DNA from: a virus
IMG/VR virus record: IMGVR_UViG_3300012348_000173
Span: 1 to 64,000 of that record
Length of the DNA: 64,000 bases
Direction: 5' to 3' (one strand)
Part shown: piece by piece, positions 5,947-27,228 of the stretch
Layout of the letters: each line of letters opens with the position of its first letter
Position numbering within the stretch: position 1 is the first letter of the stretch
Translations under genes and position numbers: made by a program
The notes under the pieces: model-generated
The model's database searches: none
What the model saw: only the letters and a program-made list of their open reading frames with translations
What the model was told of the DNA's origin: nothing

Positions 5947-6378
5947 TTAGCTCTTTTTCACGTTTCCGATGCTGTATTTTGAAATCAAATTCCAATCTTT
6001 CTTATCACGATGCGAAATGATTTTGATCATCTTAAGATTAGTCGTTTCGGTTGATTGGATCTTCTTCACAATTGTCAGCAGTCCCCAGTCAGATAATAGG
6101 ATTGCAATTGTGTTACGACGATTACGATCATCAGCTGTAAATGTACTAGGCTTACCGTCCAACATAAACAATTCCTTGAAGTGGACAATGAAGTATCGTC
6201 CTTGTTTATGCAGGATGTGACAGCTTTGATACAGCGTATTGTAATCCTTCTTGGATGAAACTCCGATTCGTGTTAAGGTTTCTTTGATCTTTAGAAAGTC
6301 ATCGGGTTCGCTTAATTGAACCTCTAGCATTTCACTTGGTGACCATTCGATATTTTCTTGAGTATCTGTTATATTCAT
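5947..6378 (-). CDS. regA: Translational repressor RegA
   Basis: DDFLKIKETLTRIG...LYQSCHILHKQGRYFIVHFKELF. Confidence 0.97.
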   Translation of the reverse strand: MNITDTQENIEWSPSEMLEVQLSEPDDFLKIKETLTRIGVSSKKDYNTLYQSCHILHKQGRYFIVHFKELFMLDGKPSTFTADDRNRRNTIAILLSDWGLLTIVKKIQSTETTNLKMIKIISHRDKKDWNLISKYSIGNVKKS

Positions 6379-20655: not shown

Positions 20656-22008
20656 TTACGCAAGGTTTGCAACGCCATTGTAACCGAATCCGTTTGCACC
20701 GGAAAGACCAGTAACAGTGAATGTACGGTAGTATGGGTTTGCACCGTTTGCACCTGTACCGTCGAGTGCAGATGGTGTACCTGCGAATGGGTTCGCAACC
20801 AAGCCGTAGCGAGTCTTGAAGCCAATCTTTGGTTGGAATGTGTTAGGATCAACTGCACGAACCATGGTAAGTGGAACGTATGGGCAGTAGAACATACCAG
20901 CGTCGTATGCATTAGCACCCTTGTAACCTACAGTGATGTAGTCGTCGGTGCTGAATGGGTCGATGAAGACCTTGAGGCGACCGTTAAGAACACCTGCAAA
21001 TACGTTACCAGTGTCATCAACGTTTAGGTTGGTGCTAAGCGCTGGAGCGTAGTTAAGAACACCAGATGCAGCAAGTGCGGAAGCAACGTTGCTGGAGCAG
21101 ATGATGAAGTTACCCTTACCACGACGTGTTGCCTTAGCAATGGAGTTAGCTTCAACATCAAGCTGGAATCCAAGAGTCTTGAACTTTTCAACAGCCCAAC
21201 GACCATCGGAGTCTTGGTCGATGTCGTAGTTACCAGAGTTATTGTAACCACCAGTCTTCGCCTTTAGGTTAACAGTTTCGATAACTTCACGGTTGATTTC
21301 TGCAAGGATTTCAACAGAGAGGATGTTAGCGAGTTCTGCTTCTGCATCAAGACCGTGGACAGCCTTAAGGTCTTGTGCAAGTTCCATGGTGTACTCAGCC
21401 TTAAGCGCACGGGTCTTTGCAGTAACCGTGGTCTTGTCGACTGTGAAGCCCATTTGACCGAAACCAGGAGAAGATGCTCCGGTTGCACCAGTTTGGCCGA
21501 TTGTCTTGTATGTACCGCTTTGCTGGTCGTAGTACTGCGTAGCACCATTATTACCATTACCGCTAAGACCTTCACCAACAGAGGTTGTTACCTTACCAGA
21601 GAAGTTAATGTCTGGCTTGTTGAAGAGTGCTTCAGCTTGGTTTGTACCAGCCGCATCCTGATATTGACTACGCATTGCGAAGATCAAACCAGTTGGCATG
21701 GTCATTGGCTGAACACCAGCGATGTCATAAGCAACGATGTTAGGCATTGCACGACGAACAAGGCTGATGAGAACTGGATCCCATGTTTGGATAGCATTAC
21801 CGCTAGCAACAGAAGGAGCAGCTGGGTTACCAATTGCGTTACCTTCGGTAAGGAAGGATGAGTGAGCGCGTTCTTCAGCGAGAGCCTTCTTTTGGTTCTC
21901 AAGTAGAACAGCGGTGATTGCACGGCGGTAGTTATCCTTGAACTTAGGTGCGTCTGGCGCGTCAAGTACCGGTGCCCAATTTTTTTGTGCGTTATCGGAG
22001 TTAAACAT
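20656..22008 (-). CDS. gp23: Major capsid protein
   Basis: GVQPM..PTGLIFAMR, LKAEYTMELAQDLKAVHGLDAE.EL, FQPKIGFKTRYG. Confidence 0.98.
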   Translation of the reverse strand: MFNSDNAQKNWAPVLDAPDAPKFKDNYRRAITAVLLENQKKALAEERAHSSFLTEGNAIGNPAAPSVASGNAIQTWDPVLISLVRRAMPNIVAYDIAGVQPMTMPTGLIFAMRSQYQDAAGTNQAEALFNKPDINFSGKVTTSVGEGLSGNGNNGATQYYDQQSGTYKTIGQTGATGASSPGFGQMGFTVDKTTVTAKTRALKAEYTMELAQDLKAVHGLDAEAELANILSVEILAEINREVIETVNLKAKTGGYNNSGNYDIDQDSDGRWAVEKFKTLGFQLDVEANSIAKATRRGKGNFIICSSNVASALAASGVLNYAPALSTNLNVDDTGNVFAGVLNGRLKVFIDPFSTDDYITVGYKGANAYDAGMFYCPYVPLTMVRAVDPNTFQPKIGFKTRYGLVANPFAGTPSALDGTGANGANPYYRTFTVTGLSGANGFGYNGVANLA

Positions 22009-22056: not shown

Positions 22057-24216
22057 TCAGAGTAGGTCAGATGTTACTGCCTTATTCATTCTTGATAGAG
22101 CGGTTAAATAGGATTTCATTTCAGGAGATAGATTGTCATCCATGGATTCTCCTTCGACGATTGTTTCAGTGCTGACGAAAGAATCGTCAGCATCTTCGGT
22201 TAATGTTGTATCTTCAGTTTCTTGTGCGCTGTTAAGGTAAAATTCCTTGATGGTTGCAACCTTCTTACGATAGGTAGCTTCATCAACAAATTCGACATCT
22301 TCAACGAGCTTCTTCAATCTGTCGACTTGTGTATCTGCGAGACCAGCGGAGGCTTCAGTTACAATCTGTTCGCGAACAAGTGTATCAACACGGTCTGCGA
22401 GAGATTCAGCAATGCGGTTAAGCTTTGCGGTTTGTTCCTTTAGATTGCTGTTTTCAGTTTCAAGCTGAGCAAACAGATCAACCTTGCTGTCAGGTACATC
22501 GACATAATTTTCGACGAATACGTTTTTCAACGATGAGATGAAGTTTTCGGCGAGCTGAGTACGTAGTGAAGATTCGATTGCAACCTTGTTCTCTTCCATC
22601 CAGGATTCAACTGCATAGGTGAGATAGCTGTCAACTTGTTCTTCAAGAACGCTCTTAACGCTTTCAACTTCTTCGGCTAGACGTGTTTCGTATTGTTCAC
22701 TTAGAGTAGCTTCGATTTCGTTAACCTTAGAAGATACTGCAGCTTCAAAAATGATAGCAGCCTTATCCTTAAATTCTTCGGTTAGTCCTTCTTCGCTTTC
22801 GATTAGACGTGTGATATCTTCGGATTCGTATGATTCTTTCATACCATACTTAGCCTTGATGATTGACTTAAGCTTTGCAGCATCGGTCTTATTCAATTTA
22901 CCAGCTTTAGTGACACGACCCTTTGCACGAGCAAGAGAATCGCCTTTACCATCATCTTTATTGGCGCGACCAAAATACATTTTATCCCATCCGTCTTCAA
23001 GATCTTTTGCAATCTTTTCGCCGCCTGGGTGTTTCTTGATTTTTGCCAGAACTTCACTTGCATCGCCATCTGAGCGTGCATCACTTGCAACTGCAATAAA
23101 ATCATCAATCAGTTCTTTTAGTTCAGGACTGATTGCTTCGTCTAATTGTAGGTCTTCGGATTCGTATGATTCTTTCATTGATGCTTTTTCTTTTTCAAGC
23201 TTTTTAATGCGAGCTTGTCTACGCTTAATCATATCTCTTAACTCGACAATTTCATTGCCAATACCTTGAGGGAGATTAGCAAATACACCATCTTTTGTTC
23301 GGTAAGAGGCAATTTTCTTTTCAACTTCTTTTATCTTTTCCTGATATTCCGCAATCTTTTCATGACTGCGCTTAATCTTTTCGTCAATAGATTTTCCATA
23401 ATCTCCCCATGCAGGGCTATGTGGATCATTATGACGGGCTTCGTCTAATTGCATGTCTTCAGATTCTTCAAGGCTTTCACGTACATAAGAACCTTCATGC
23501 TCTCTATCAACTTTACCATCTTTGCCTTTAACGACAGTATGAATATCGCCGCCATGCTGAATAAATGCATGATACTTTCCAGACTTTTGCATTTCTTCTT
23601 TACCCTTTTTAATGATTTCATCATGATCTTTTTTGCTGACATCAGTCACTTTACTAACTTCAGTTCCATGACCTTTCTTTGCAGCCCATGCTTTAGCAGA
23701 TGCTTCATCTTTGAAGTATTTAGTATAGCCTGTGCCGCTGTAAACGCCAGGGTAATGTGCTCTCCATCTCTCGGTTCCATGAGCCATCGAGGCTTCAGCT
23801 AAACCGATATCATTTTCTTCATCGAGTTCAGCTTCTTCTTTTGCAAGTTTCTTAGCAACTGTCTTACGACGCTTGGTAAGATATTCATCAGCTTCATCGC
23901 TATCTCCATCATTATCAACGTCAGAATCTTCGTCTCCGGTCTTATCTAGACCTTCACCATCGTCTTCTTTATCGTCATCGTCTTTGCCATCAATTGATTT
24001 AGGATCGACTTTTGTGGCTTCGCCCATTTCGTCTTCACCCATCTCATCTTCATCGTAATTGCATTTGCATTCATCATCGCAATCACAATCCTCTTTCTTA
24101 GCTTTGGCTTCAGTGATATCCTGTTCCAAAGTTTCATCAAGAGTTTCCAATGCGGCAACGTCGATGTCTTCAATGATGACTTCGTCTTCTTGTAGAGTAT
24201 CTAGGTTATTTTCCAT
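22057..24216 (-). CDS. gp22: Prohead core scaffold protein with large modular insertions
   Basis: C-terminal GLTEEFKDKAAIIFEAAV...YLTYAVESW.EEN core; lies between gp21 and gp23; 719 aa. Confidence 0.9.
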   Translation of the reverse strand: MENNLDTLQEDEVIIEDIDVAALETLDETLEQDITEAKAKKEDCDCDDECKCNYDEDEMGEDEMGEATKVDPKSIDGKDDDDKEDDGEGLDKTGDEDSDVDNDGDSDEADEYLTKRRKTVAKKLAKEEAELDEENDIGLAEASMAHGTERWRAHYPGVYSGTGYTKYFKDEASAKAWAAKKGHGTEVSKVTDVSKKDHDEIIKKGKEEMQKSGKYHAFIQHGGDIHTVVKGKDGKVDREHEGSYVRESLEESEDMQLDEARHNDPHSPAWGDYGKSIDEKIKRSHEKIAEYQEKIKEVEKKIASYRTKDGVFANLPQGIGNEIVELRDMIKRRQARIKKLEKEKASMKESYESEDLQLDEAISPELKELIDDFIAVASDARSDGDASEVLAKIKKHPGGEKIAKDLEDGWDKMYFGRANKDDGKGDSLARAKGRVTKAGKLNKTDAAKLKSIIKAKYGMKESYESEDITRLIESEEGLTEEFKDKAAIIFEAAVSSKVNEIEATLSEQYETRLAEEVESVKSVLEEQVDSYLTYAVESWMEENKVAIESSLRTQLAENFISSLKNVFVENYVDVPDSKVDLFAQLETENSNLKEQTAKLNRIAESLADRVDTLVREQIVTEASAGLADTQVDRLKKLVEDVEFVDEATYRKKVATIKEFYLNSAQETEDTTLTEDADDSFVSTETIVEGESMDDNLSPEMKSYLTALSRMNKAVTSDLL
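22817..23178. repeat. 26-bp exact direct repeat at 22817-22842 and 23153-23178 encoding MKESYESE(D) linkers
   Basis: tcttcggattcgtatgattctttcat occurs twice; gcttcgtctaattg also recurs at 23135 and 23438. Confidence 0.9.
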
Positions 24217-24230
24217 TGTTATTTTCTTAA

Positions 24231-24878
24231 TTACAGGTTGGAGAGGAAATCATCCCAGACACGTATCTGAGCTTCAGCCAAATTTGCTGAAGAGGCTTTT
24301 TTGATTTCAGTCTCATATTTTTCAATTTGTTGCGGCTTAAGTAGACCGTTATCCCAGATCCATTCTACGCCTTCCATGATGCCATTGACAAACGCCGATG
24401 GTGCACTTGGATCTTGTACAATATCAACTGTGGACAGTGTGAAATCATCATTGACTTCACTGCGGCCGTTCCTAGATGCAACGGTTCCCATACCACGACT
24501 AGAGACGCCCAACTGACAACCACCTTCAAGAAGTCCTTTCACGATGTTACCCATTGGGGTGTTCAGTATAAGCGCCTTTCCAACAACATCATTACCGTTC
24601 CATGATAGTTCGGTAATGCGGTGTGAAACTTTATCAAGGTTAATTGTAGGACCGTCTGGATGGTTTAATTCACCAACGGCGCGACCTTTATTAACATACT
24701 CTGTAAGGTATTTACCTACAGCTTTTTCTAAAACTTTCTTTGGGTAAACTCGACGATTACGGTTTACCTGTTCAGCTTGCATGAAGACTCCATCAATGAT
24801 GTATTTCTTTTCACCACCCTGTGCGCTCTCAACAATAGAGTAGCTAAGGTCTTCAATATGCTCGGTGATTAATTTCAT
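24231..24878 (-). CDS. gp21: Prohead protease
   Basis: NRNRRVYP, GELNHP, GVSSRGMG, DIVQDPSAPSA. Confidence 0.96.
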   Translation of the reverse strand: MKLITEHIEDLSYSIVESAQGGEKKYIIDGVFMQAEQVNRNRRVYPKKVLEKAVGKYLTEYVNKGRAVGELNHPDGPTINLDKVSHRITELSWNGNDVVGKALILNTPMGNIVKGLLEGGCQLGVSSRGMGTVASRNGRSEVNDDFTLSTVDIVQDPSAPSAFVNGIMEGVEWIWDNGLLKPQQIEKYETEIKKASSANLAEAQIRVWDDFLSNL

Positions 24879-24887
24879 TATGGAGTT

Positions 24888-24895
24888 TATTTATA
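24888..24895 (-). promoter_or_regulatory. Late promoter of gp21-gp22-gp23
   Basis: Exact TATAAATA. Confidence 0.8.
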
Positions 24896-24917: not shown

Positions 24918-25595
24918 TTATTTTTCAATAACTGCAATTGCGTCCATCAGTTGCTTATTGCCTGAATTTTTACGCTTTATGTCTGCAAGGATTTTTTCAA
25001 CGGTCTTTGTGTCAACACGACCAGCATCAACATGTGCATGCTCCCACGCATTTTTCTGATGAATATCCAAAGCCTTCATAAGTGTATCGCGTGCAGCCAT
25101 GTATTTAGCATTGCGTTCTTTTGCTGCTAAGCCTTTTGACATATCATACTTTTTAGGTGGATTTGCTGTAGCGTATTCACCGCTTGCAAGATCATCATAC
25201 AGCTTCTTAATTGCCTTTACAGCGCTCTTAATCTCAGAGCTTGCATGTGTACTTGCTAACTTATCATAGTAGCTAAGAACGTCGGATGTGCTAGGGCGAC
25301 TTTGGGAAAATGCATTAAATTTATCACGCTCGCCTTTATCTAATTTGCTCATGATTGTGTCTCTGTGCGAAACATATTCTTGAGACCATTTTCGTGATGC
25401 TGCTGCCCCCAATGCATTTAAGCCAGTTGCTTCTTGAATGCTATTGTTATAAATTGTGGACGCCAATTCAACTCTCTTAACGTCGAGAGCCGTGGTTACA
25501 CGAGTCATAATTGCGTTTTTAAATGCAGCGTCTGCTGCAGCAGTGTTATCAGATTGAACTGCATTGATAATTGATTGTACTTGTACGTCGCTCAT
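24918..25595 (-). CDS. gp67: Prohead core protein (gp67-like N-terminus) with a 170-aa extension
   Basis: First 55 aa (A..AFKNAIM.RV..ALD.KRVELA) and position between gp20 and gp21. Confidence 0.7.
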   Translation of the reverse strand: MSDVQVQSIINAVQSDNTAAADAAFKNAIMTRVTTALDVKRVELASTIYNNSIQEATGLNALGAAASRKWSQEYVSHRDTIMSKLDKGERDKFNAFSQSRPSTSDVLSYYDKLASTHASSEIKSAVKAIKKLYDDLASGEYATANPPKKYDMSKGLAAKERNAKYMAARDTLMKALDIHQKNAWEHAHVDAGRVDTKTVEKILADIKRKNSGNKQLMDAIAVIEK

Positions 25596-25620: not shown

Positions 25621-27228
25621 TTAAACGTCTGTTTCCGCTGAGTCTATATCGTCCTCACCGCCCGCGTCAGCGCCGTCACCTACACTATCGGAATCTTCAG
25701 GGGCCGCTGCTGCGTCTGCTTTAGCTTTTTCTTCAGCAATTTCTTCATCCATTTGAGCAATCTCATCATCGCTTTGATTGAGAATATTTGAACGGACCCA
25801 TTTTTCGCTGTAGTATTTACCAACCTTATCACCAAGCTGGTCAACAACTCCAACACGTTCCTTAAGGATTTCGAAGTCTTTTAGCTCACTAAAGTAGTTG
25901 TCCTCAATGTAGTCAACGTTAAGGTTTTCTTTAATTGGGTTCCAATCCTGAGGAGTAATGATACCTTTAAGAACAAGCTGAGTGCGCAGCAGGTCAATGA
26001 ATAGGACCGCAAACTTCTTACGCAGACGGTTAACAAACTTTTGGAACTTAACTTCTTCTCGAGAAATTTCGCTGACGCGACCCATGTTAAACATAGATTC
26101 ACTATCAAGTCGGTTTTGCGGAACATTTAGACTGCGGTGCAGTTTCTTTTGGAAGAATAGGACGTCCTCAATTTGACTGAGGTTTTCACCACCTGGTAGA
26201 GTTGTAATTTCGGTACCTTTACCGCCTTCACGACGTGGCAACCAAAAGTCCTCAAGCATACTCATGCTCTTGCGGTCATCGCTAATTTCACCTGTGTTGG
26301 CATCATACACCAACTTGTTGCGATACTTAGCCATGATGCCTTGAACATATTCTTCGGCCTTACCTTTTGGAAGGTTACCAATGTCAATGTAGAAGATACG
26401 ACGCTCAGGCGCACGTGAAATACGATAGATAACAAGACTGTCTTCCATCATGCGTAGCTGATTAACTAGCTTAACGCTTTTGTGTAGGTAAGAAATTGTT
26501 ACACGTCCAGTTTCATCGGTTAAACCTGAAGGAACATATGTTACAACTTCAGGATCAATCTTAATACCGCTGCTCATCATTGGCGGCGATTGTGACGTGG
26601 TTAATGATCCAATATCATCGGTGTAAAGGTAATACTCGTTTGAAACTTCAACTGTTTTTACACCAGTGACTTTGTCAAGCTTTGTGGTTACTTCTTTAAC
26701 CTTCTTAATTCGCAACGGATCAATCATGCGAAGTTCTTTGATCCCGTCTTTTAACTTTTTAGGATCAATGATCTTATGATAATATATGCGGCCGTCAATA
26801 TACCAACGGCGGAAAATATCAGGACCCATGAAATTGAAATCAATTAGCGTTAGCAGATTTTTAAATTCGTCATGGATCTTTGTTTTGATTGACTCTGACA
26901 ACTCAACATTATCGAGAATCAATCGAACTGGCATACCATCGCTGTCATTAACGATAGATGCATTTACAATTTCAGTAATCGCGTTGTCACATTCTGGTTG
27001 TGTACTTGCTCCGCGATACTTTAAGATGAGGTCCTTTTCATTATTGAAACTGACACCATCAATGTTTAACACCTGACCATAATATCCAGATGTAGATGAA
27101 CTTGAGATAACTGCAGCATCGTCAACTCCATACGGAGCCGCAAATGACTTCATTGTTCCTTCGCGCTCGTCCGTGCTAGGTTTAGCGCCGTCAATCTTTC
27201 GCCCAATTTCAAATCCGAATAACTTCAT
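25621..27228 (-). CDS. gp20: Portal protein
   Basis: FRRWYIDGR, IYRISRAPERRIFYID.GNLPK, EDFWLPRREGG.GTEITTLPG. Confidence 0.98.
   Translation of the reverse strand: MKLFGFEIGRKIDGAKPSTDEREGTMKSFAAPYGVDDAAVISSSSTSGYYGQVLNIDGVSFNNEKDLILKYRGASTQPECDNAITEIVNASIVNDSDGMPVRLILDNVELSESIKTKIHDEFKNLLTLIDFNFMGPDIFRRWYIDGRIYYHKIIDPKKLKDGIKELRMIDPLRIKKVKEVTTKLDKVTGVKTVEVSNEYYLYTDDIGSLTTSQSPPMMSSGIKIDPEVVTYVPSGLTDETGRVTISYLHKSVKLVNQLRMMEDSLVIYRISRAPERRIFYIDIGNLPKGKAEEYVQGIMAKYRNKLVYDANTGEISDDRKSMSMLEDFWLPRREGGKGTEITTLPGGENLSQIEDVLFFQKKLHRSLNVPQNRLDSESMFNMGRVSEISREEVKFQKFVNRLRKKFAVLFIDLLRTQLVLKGIITPQDWNPIKENLNVDYIEDNYFSELKDFEILKERVGVVDQLGDKVGKYYSEKWVRSNILNQSDDEIAQMDEEIAEEKAKADAAAAPEDSDSVGDGADAGGEDDIDSAETDV

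Follow-up and report, generated by a model that had tools for sequence, protein, structure and literature searches.

The window analysed here is a 64,000-nucleotide (nt) stretch of DNA from an uncultured T4-like phage (positions 1 to 64,000 of IMG/VR virus record IMGVR_UViG_3300012348_000173), and our subject is its gene for the prohead scaffold, gp22. The gene occupies 22057..24216 on the minus strand (open reading frame (ORF) call; Pfam T4_CASP E 6e-62) and encodes a protein of 719 amino acids (aa). It is located between the genes for the S77 prohead protease and the capsid protein gp23, with all three on the minus strand. Gp22 is a member of the T4_CASP scaffold family, matching Pfam PF25623 at 209.8 bits (cut-off 27) over profile positions 2-246 of 247. 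This match is confined to aa 465-706 of the 719-aa protein, which consists of five parts: an acidic arm, three modules (A, B, and C) that total 332 aa, and the T4_CASP core. In order along the polypeptide these are as follows, with an arrow at each proposed cleavage point and pI denoting isoelectric point.

23794..24216, minus strand: acidic N-terminal arm, aa 1-141, pI 4.05, ending at GLAE↓A
23440..23793, minus strand: module A, aa 142-259, 13.3 kDa, starting after GLAE↓A
23137..23439, minus strand: module B, aa 260-360, 11.8 kDa, starting after QLDE↓A
22798..23136, minus strand: module C, aa 361-473, 12.3 kDa, starting after QLDE↓A
22060..22797, minus strand: scaffold core (Pfam T4_CASP), aa 474-719, pI 4.2, starting after RLIE↓S

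An earlier note on this DNA, made from the letters alone, had described a 719-aa gp22 with three unrelated Lys-rich blocks, each starting after L-x-E-A and ending in ES(L/Y)E..ED. We find the blocks at the same positions, with GLAE↓A, QLDE↓A, and QLDE↓A as their starts and the acidic ES(L/Y)E..ED linker at the end of all three. By tblastn and blastp, modules A, B, and C are mutually unrelated except for these linker tails. Each contains 20-23 Lys and Arg residues, and module B is Lys/Glu-rich with a helical, coiled-coil-like composition. The linker DNA is itself repeated, in two families.

22817..22842, C/core junction: linker DNA repeat, copy 1, 26 nt, family D4, encoding MKESYESED
23153..23178, B/C junction: linker DNA repeat, copy 2, 26 nt, family D4, 100% identical to copy 1
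23135..23163, B/C junction: second linker repeat, 29 nt, family D1, encoding ESEDLQLDEA
23438..23466, A/B junction: other copy of the second linker repeat, 90% identical, family D1, encoding ESEDMQLDEA

The 26-bp identity that had been reported at 22817 and 23153 is thus complete, and an exact repeat of 26 nt within one gene is far beyond chance. The 14-bp repeat reported at 23135 and 23438 proved to be the exact portion of the longer, 29-nt repeat.

The module set of gp22 changes from phage to phage. Close relatives in IMG/VR, whose proteins are 94% (protease), 93-95% (portal), and 85-87% (capsid protein) identical to those of the window, carry scaffolds of several other builds. An arm-A-core scaffold of 485 aa is found in three separate metagenomes, and other relatives have arm-A-C-core (598 aa), arm-A-C-C-core (711 aa, the C-C pair recurring in a second sample), and arm-C-D-core (556 aa), where D is a further module. 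We also searched a set of 5.8 billion proteins with the gp22 core alone, considering long proteins only, and recovered 765 T4-type scaffolds of at least 395 aa. Among the matches listed there are at least 15 distinct scaffolds of 395-724 aa with 71-100% core identity. The module sets seen in this protein database are none, E, F, G-E-E, C-E, J-E, H-E-I, and an A-like variant, which adds at least six further modules (E, F, G, H, I, and J) to A-D, besides the A-like variant, and both orders and copy numbers differ. Module B is seen only in this phage; elsewhere just its linker tail matches. Rather than one invariant colinear insertion, the 15 scaffolds present varied sets in which the arm, the linkers, and the core persist, as had been anticipated for related phages. 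Gp22 of T4 is about 270 aa, and the ordinary marine T4-like scaffolds that these searches also recovered measure 340-350 aa, with an arm of 120 aa, compared with the 719 aa of gp22 in this phage.

More distant scaffolds, with 51-63% core identity, reach 972 aa. The modules of this wider clade were defined by a simple motif rule and single-linkage clustering, by which several modules are lumped. One group within it (P0045 at 903 aa, P0136, P0060, and P0044; 53-60% core identity) has an arm module with a Walker-A-like GPPGIGKT. The same group also has a recurring module, tandem in some cases, that opens with AISWDLIQSMY and includes a hydrophobic, transmembrane-like segment. A 460-aa marine scaffold, T4-like but distant (L084:148-1551; 46% core identity), contains a basic, Gly/Arg-rich insert of ~115 aa after DLDE↓A. 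Since this scaffold has an insert of its own, the insertion of cargo into the arm may have arisen more than once.

Alignments between the genes of relatives place the breakpoints of this variation. L003 and L001 are 99.9% identical in DNA, and L001 additionally repeats the 339-nt C unit, exactly and in tandem. Between L003 and L007, identity is 99% across the arm and module A, after which they differ by a 339-nt indel of the C unit. In both events the alignment blocks overlap by 21 nt, and this overlap is the linker repeat encoding ESFESED. L001 and L010 are 100% identical through module A and 93% identical in the core, so the scaffold gene is mosaic. From the aligned sequences, the mobile unit appears as 'LQLDEA - module - ESFESED', exchanged in all likelihood by recombination between linker repeats, and the 26-nt and 29-nt repeats of the window are the same exchange device as the linker repeat of the relatives. 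The suggestion that repeated linkers permit modules to be gained, lost, or swapped is therefore borne out, as the cassette indels map exactly onto the 21-nt linker repeats.

Repeats can also mislead assembly, and the cassette differences could in principle be metagenome assembly artefacts: linker repeats of 21-29 nt and a C-C tandem that is 100% identical carry a risk of short-read mis-joins. We consider this exceedingly improbable. The arm-A-core build recurs in three metagenomes and the C-C arrangement of L001 in two independent samples, the second being L002; the modules are unique sequence rather than repeats, all variants maintain one open frame, and the repeats are shorter than a typical read length.

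Modules A and C have the features of folded, selected proteins. The AlphaFold2 (AF2) model of module A has a mean predicted local distance difference test (pLDDT) score of 71 and comprises a predicted alpha/beta domain (aa 149-246) followed by a disordered acidic linker (module residues 106-118, pLDDT <50). For module C the mean pLDDT is 75; three helices make up its N-terminal part, and its basic tail is conserved and strongly Lys-rich in alignment A1. In both models the linkers fall below a pLDDT of 50, which predicts flexible, exposed segments. When the window is compared with its relatives, the ratio of nonsynonymous to synonymous substitution rates (dN/dS) comes to 0.24 for module A, 0.18-0.21 for module C, and 0.10-0.13 for the core, values which indicate that modules A and C are under purifying selection, somewhat relaxed or faster-evolving than the core. 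Module A is 65-77% identical in relatives, with ~70 positions invariant down to 65% identity.

The module boundaries resemble protease sites. In T4, cleavage by gp21 follows L/I-x-E, with a Glu-Ala bond as the cut site in gp22 (PMC9026906). Across the clade, all module boundaries show [L/I/M]-x-E with Ala, Gly, or Ser as the next residue, and the motif is kept despite differing linkers, appearing as ITE↓A and LVE↓G in P0003, a 61%-identical scaffold. In the arms of the close clade, the residue after [LIM]-x-E is Ala in 28% and Ser in 24% of cases against a background of ~7%, although these counts are phylogenetically non-independent. Inside the modules, [LI]-x-E is found 0 times in A, D, E, F, H, and the A-like variant, once in C, and four times in B. 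The scaffold core has 12 [LI]-x-E motifs in 246 aa, with 5.0 expected from shuffles, and this richness fits its expected degradation. The arrangement suggests that the linkers of gp22 are cleaved by an S77 protease, presumably the one encoded beside gp22 at 24231..24878. Trimmed of the acidic linker at LEE↓S or MKE↓S, the modules would be 10.5-12.3 kDa with a pI of 8.7-9.6. The major capsid protein gp23 had also been said to carry FLTE-G near its N-terminus; FLTE↓G is present at aa 52-55, before the Gp23 domain (start aa 73), and is a candidate maturation site.

These observations bear on the view that the arm is a tolerated, functionless spacer whose linkers stay uncut and whose variation reflects neutral indels in a disordered region. 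Such a spacer would be consistent with the finding of no function or known fold for any module, and with arms that are long and variable also in phages where they are purely acidic. However, dN/dS values of 0.18-0.24 indicate purifying selection, AF2 predicts folded domains, and module A retains invariant positions at 65% identity. The boundaries always carry a protease-type motif even where the linkers differ, as in P0003, and the same C domain is kept elsewhere as a separate gene. A neutral spacer therefore seems very improbable.

The separate C genes came from a phmmer search of 1.84 billion representatives with A+B+C as the query. Outside homologues were obtained for module C alone, as 26 proteins with E of 3e-10 to 8e-4, many of which stand alone at 97-160 aa. 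Of the 15 stand-alone homologues with a complete N-terminus in alignment A1, 13 have a leader ending in (L/I/V)-x-E, which aligns with the QLDE↓A column of the scaffolds. One of these leaders, MKTYKQFIIE↓A, is identical at 7 of 10 positions to the T4 capsid targeting sequence (CTS), MKTYQEFIAE (PMC8442874). Where genomic context was recovered, the stand-alone C genes are in T4-like genomes between homologues of window genes 5947-6378 and hsp20/gp43, and others, also in T4-like genomes, adjoin gp32-like and gp59-like genes. G001, a complete 170.7-kb genome with a stand-alone C gene, encodes an S77 protease. The arm of its scaffold is long, acidic throughout, and free of basic modules, and the ..RLIE↓SEE junction is shared. 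The occurrence of C both alone and within scaffolds suggests one domain delivered either as a tagged gene or as part of the scaffold. The question of stand-alone copies, raised in the earlier note, thus has a split answer: C has them, at 97-160 aa and with leaders, and A and B show none among the 1.84 billion representatives. The phage's own 93.9-kb genome contains no stand-alone copy of A, B, or C.

C-like domains are also found in the multi-module L166/L169 proteins and, on big phage fragments, as the final part of larger proteins. The L166/L169 ORF (L169:5530-7020) encodes 497 aa with a CTS-like start and at least four modules, one of them C-like, with joints of the form ..EEVELDE↓A and ..VELNE↓A. 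In L181, L183, and L186 the C-like domain is part of multi-module proteins of 628-882 aa encoded directly after the large-terminase gene, and it is also present in proteins of L192 (534 aa) and L196 (510 aa). CheckV rates the fragments with large C-like proteins as 8-23% complete, so they are probably from very large phages. The C-like proteins of L169, L180, L186, L192, and L196 gave no Pfam or PHROG family match, and no S77 protease or scaffold is present on these five fragments. An origin of module C from the basic 'PKTKAG' stretch of marine T4-like arms was considered, and the comparison was not significant: the BLASTP match (E 0.018) is to the wrong region, and the hhalign match (E 0.17) spans 13 columns.

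The reading in the earlier note has thus far held wherever sequence allows a check. Taken with the T4 system, these data lead us to propose that gp22 is both scaffold and cargo carrier: its linkers would be cut by the protease and its modules kept in the head and probably delivered to the host. We assign this reading a probability of roughly 0.6. The C-terminal core of gp22 would build the prohead core as in T4, with an N-terminal arm that has presumably accumulated independent modules, each bracketed by a flexible acidic linker ending in L/I-x-E↓A. Each scaffold molecule entering the prohead would then bring one copy per module. The S77 protease would chop the motif-rich core into small peptides, which exit the head, and would cut the linkers once or twice, freeing modules of ~10-13 kDa that are basic after removal of the acidic linker. 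Folded and too large to escape, the modules would stay with the DNA like T4 internal proteins and then probably be delivered into the next host. Because the linker DNA is repeated, homologous recombination would add, delete, duplicate, and swap cassettes, and closely related phages would therefore carry different cargo sets. Head retention, injection, and an anti-defence or DNA-packing role are what we infer for the modules from their sequences.

Several observations weigh against a carrier role. Module B, with its four internal [LI]-x-E motifs, may be degraded. For the other modules, the scarcity of internal motifs is by itself not significant (2 against ~5 expected, pooled) and is only suggestive, because those modules are Glu-poor. 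We know of no established T4 gp21 site with Met at P3, as would be used at MKE↓S and MDE↓A. While the linker stays on, module pI is 6.5-8.1, close to neutrality. The C pair of L001 shows 100% identity, as a very recent duplication or an effect of assembly could produce. For A and B, no stand-alone or leader-bearing homologue was found among the 1.84 billion representatives, nor was one found for D and E among short proteins, where the word index restricted the search. No module had an above-noise hit in Pfam or PHROG, and Foldseek found no match in the PDB at E <= 0.001 for A or C. A wide VIA-align search with module A was uninformative (best Z 4.2), and ESM Atlas look-ups for A and C gave scores below 0.8. 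The per-module HMM and structure searches that had been proposed therefore yielded a stand-alone family for C, with no recognised family, fold, or function for any module.

The modules could instead act in assembly only, being cleaved and then expelled or degraded with the scaffold, and serve to tune core volume, charge balance, or nucleation. Most fragments of T4 gp22 leave the head, and T4 IPIII also affects head assembly (PMC9026906). The gp22 modules ride on the scaffold itself, and the wealth of [LI]-x-E inside module B would suit such a fate. However, phages with a 94% identical protease and ~86% identical capsid protein carry zero to four modules, a tolerance that does not fit easily with a structural need. 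The stand-alone homologues of module C are built on the plan of T4 internal proteins, folded fragments in the 10-13 kDa range match the size of the T4 internal proteins retained in the head, and the interiors of A, D, E, and F are without a cleavage motif. We regard a role restricted to assembly as unlikely.

Retention in the head could also serve the capsid itself, with the Lys-rich modules condensing DNA or neutralising charge for packaging or ejection rather than acting as host effectors. The linker-trimmed modules are basic (pI 9.2-9.6), the module C tail is strongly Lys-rich, and T4 internal proteins are likewise basic and lie with the DNA (PMC8442874). Conversely, a generic polycation fails to explain unrelated folded domains with specific conserved residues and leaves the P-loop module and hydrophobic segment of the wider relatives unexplained, and the speed at which modules turn over is more suggestive of conflict-driven cargo. 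An exclusively in-capsid function is thus improbable, and we continue to favor gp22 as a carrier of modules probably destined for the host.

The closest model for such cargo is the set of T4 internal proteins. IPI, IPII, IPIII, and Alt are small, basic after processing, brought into the prohead core, and freed after L/I-x-E (PMC9026906, PMC8442874), and the same is proposed for the gp22 modules, which measure 10.5-13.3 kDa and would be basic if the acidic linker is trimmed off as well (pI 9.2-9.6, against 6.5-8.1 with it attached). Mature heads contain hundreds of copies of the T4 internal proteins, which enter the host with the DNA. L/I-x-E stands immediately before each putative mature module, as in the T4 internal proteins (GLAE↓A, QLDE↓A, QLDE↓A, and, at the core, RLIE↓S). 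The linker-trimmed modules are in the size range of T4 IPI and IPII, and in both systems the repertoire differs strongly between related phages. In contrast, T4 internal proteins are separate genes with an N-terminal CTS, whereas the gp22 modules are tandem segments of the scaffold polypeptide whose repeated linker DNA, unlike the T4 genes, permits cassette exchange. An N-terminal targeting leader on a separate small gene is present in the stand-alone C homologues and absent from A, B, and C. Module C and its stand-alone homologue P0004 had no tblastn match in 50,697 phage records and thus no similarity to T4 internal proteins. For the whole of gp22, the matches begin at about residue 355 or later, among the matches listed. 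No resemblance to a protein of any cultured phage emerged for the modules. By these defining features the modules fall outside the T4 internal protein family, and they are best described as a protease-jointed, recombining polyprotein in the scaffold.

The surrounding genes form a minus-strand head operon of T4-type order: portal, gp67-like, S77 protease, gp22, and gp23.

25621-27228, minus strand: portal gene
24918..25595, minus strand: gp67-like prohead core gene, 225 aa, weak PHROG 'prohead' match at aa 8-49
24231..24878, minus strand: prohead protease, gp21-like, Peptidase_S77 (Pfam E 1.2e-42)
20656..22008, minus strand: major capsid protein gp23 (Pfam Gp23 E 5e-139, domain start aa 73)

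Compared with T4 gp22, gp67, and gp68, the genes of this phage match in core domain, gene order, acidity, and dense L/I-x-E. The gp67-like protein has a conserved part of 55 aa ending in SIQE, followed by a 170-aa extension (24921-25430; pI 9.5). In the relatives L001 and L008 the protein at the gp67-like position is 60 aa and stops where the extension of the window begins, and the extension has no relative in IMG/VR. As judged from these sequences, the gp67-like case independently shows a core protein that appears to have gained a passenger behind a protease-type IQE↓A site. A further gene, outside the window at genome positions 69617-71416 (L198:618-2417, plus strand) and adjoining a gp32-like gene, encodes a 599-aa protein with an N-terminal stretch running to ..EDLLLDE↓V and then Gly/hydrophobic-rich repeats; this may be another protease-processed virion protein.

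The gp22 arm is 65-90% conserved across all close relatives, with ITE↓A (aa 34-36) and MGE↓A as conserved candidate sites. Within it is a Cys-rich acidic insert (aa 43-66; 24019-24090, minus strand) that reads CDCDDECKC.., followed by repeated DEMGE, and ends at MGE↓A. The insert is common to P0033, P0038, and P0041, is missing in L001, L003, L006, and L007, and may bind metal.

A T4-type late promoter motif, TATAAATA, is found at 24888-24895 (minus strand) directly upstream of the protease gene, and there is no T4-type late promoter motif within the gp22 ORF. Since gp22 has no internal late promoter, the modules would be produced as one chain with the scaffold, and their separate expression from an internal T4-type late promoter is unlikely. 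The window has nine TATAAATA sites, all on the minus strand (e.g., 20588, 24888, 27861, 29730, and 31987), which is only a mild enrichment over the 4.7 expected. Several are directly upstream of late structural genes, consistent with T4-type late promoters.

Other systems share parts of this design. In the phiKZ-like and SPN3US giant phages, a gp21-related protease reportedly matures many proteins that are head-internal or ejected, acting at short Glu-ending motifs. Those proteins are separate genes with propeptides, whereas here the cassettes are inside the scaffold gene, and no homology between the gp22 modules and the phiKZ-like or SPN3US head proteins was detected. Viral polyproteins are similar in having several units per ORF separated by consensus sites for the virus's own protease. 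Unlike them, gp22 has accessory, strain-variable units, its protease is in an adjacent separate gene, and cutting would occur inside the prohead. In P22 scaffold-protein fusions and in encapsulin cargo-loading peptides, a passenger is attached to an element that is recruited into the shell, the encapsulin tags being short and C-terminal. T4 CTS fusions load 20-200 foreign proteins per head (PMC9026906). If gp22 is a cargo carrier, the encapsulin tags and the laboratory-made T4 and P22 fusions share its loading logic, and gp22 would be their naturally evolving equivalent, with release by a protease.

Our literature search did not turn up any account of a T4-type scaffold with cargo modules in it. 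The internal proteins of T4 are the textbook case of proteins injected before gene expression, with IPI* acting against a restriction system, and how injected phage cargo is acquired and diversified is poorly understood. A scaffold-borne route, if the carrier reading is true, would be a simple natural means of loading any small protein at high copy, releasing it with the maturation protease already in place, and exchanging it through recombination at the repeated linkers. The 765 long scaffolds would represent hundreds of candidate head-cargo modules in metagenomes, with a sequence rule to find them, and a natural counterpart of the CTS and scaffold-fusion engineering of phage capsids as protein carriers. 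More tentatively, and with greater doubt than belief, the scaffold (and at least once the gp67-like protein) in a large uncultured T4-like group might be a general, recombination-ready delivery chassis, in which any small protein flanked by an acidic LxE↓A linker would be loaded in the same stoichiometry as the scaffold, cut free in the prohead, and injected along with the DNA as a first-wave effector, for example in anti-defence. Were this true, the wider clade, with scaffolds of up to 972 aa and P-loop and hydrophobic modules, would extend the cargo to enzymes and membrane-active pieces, and linker-mediated exchange would reshuffle the repertoire between strains.

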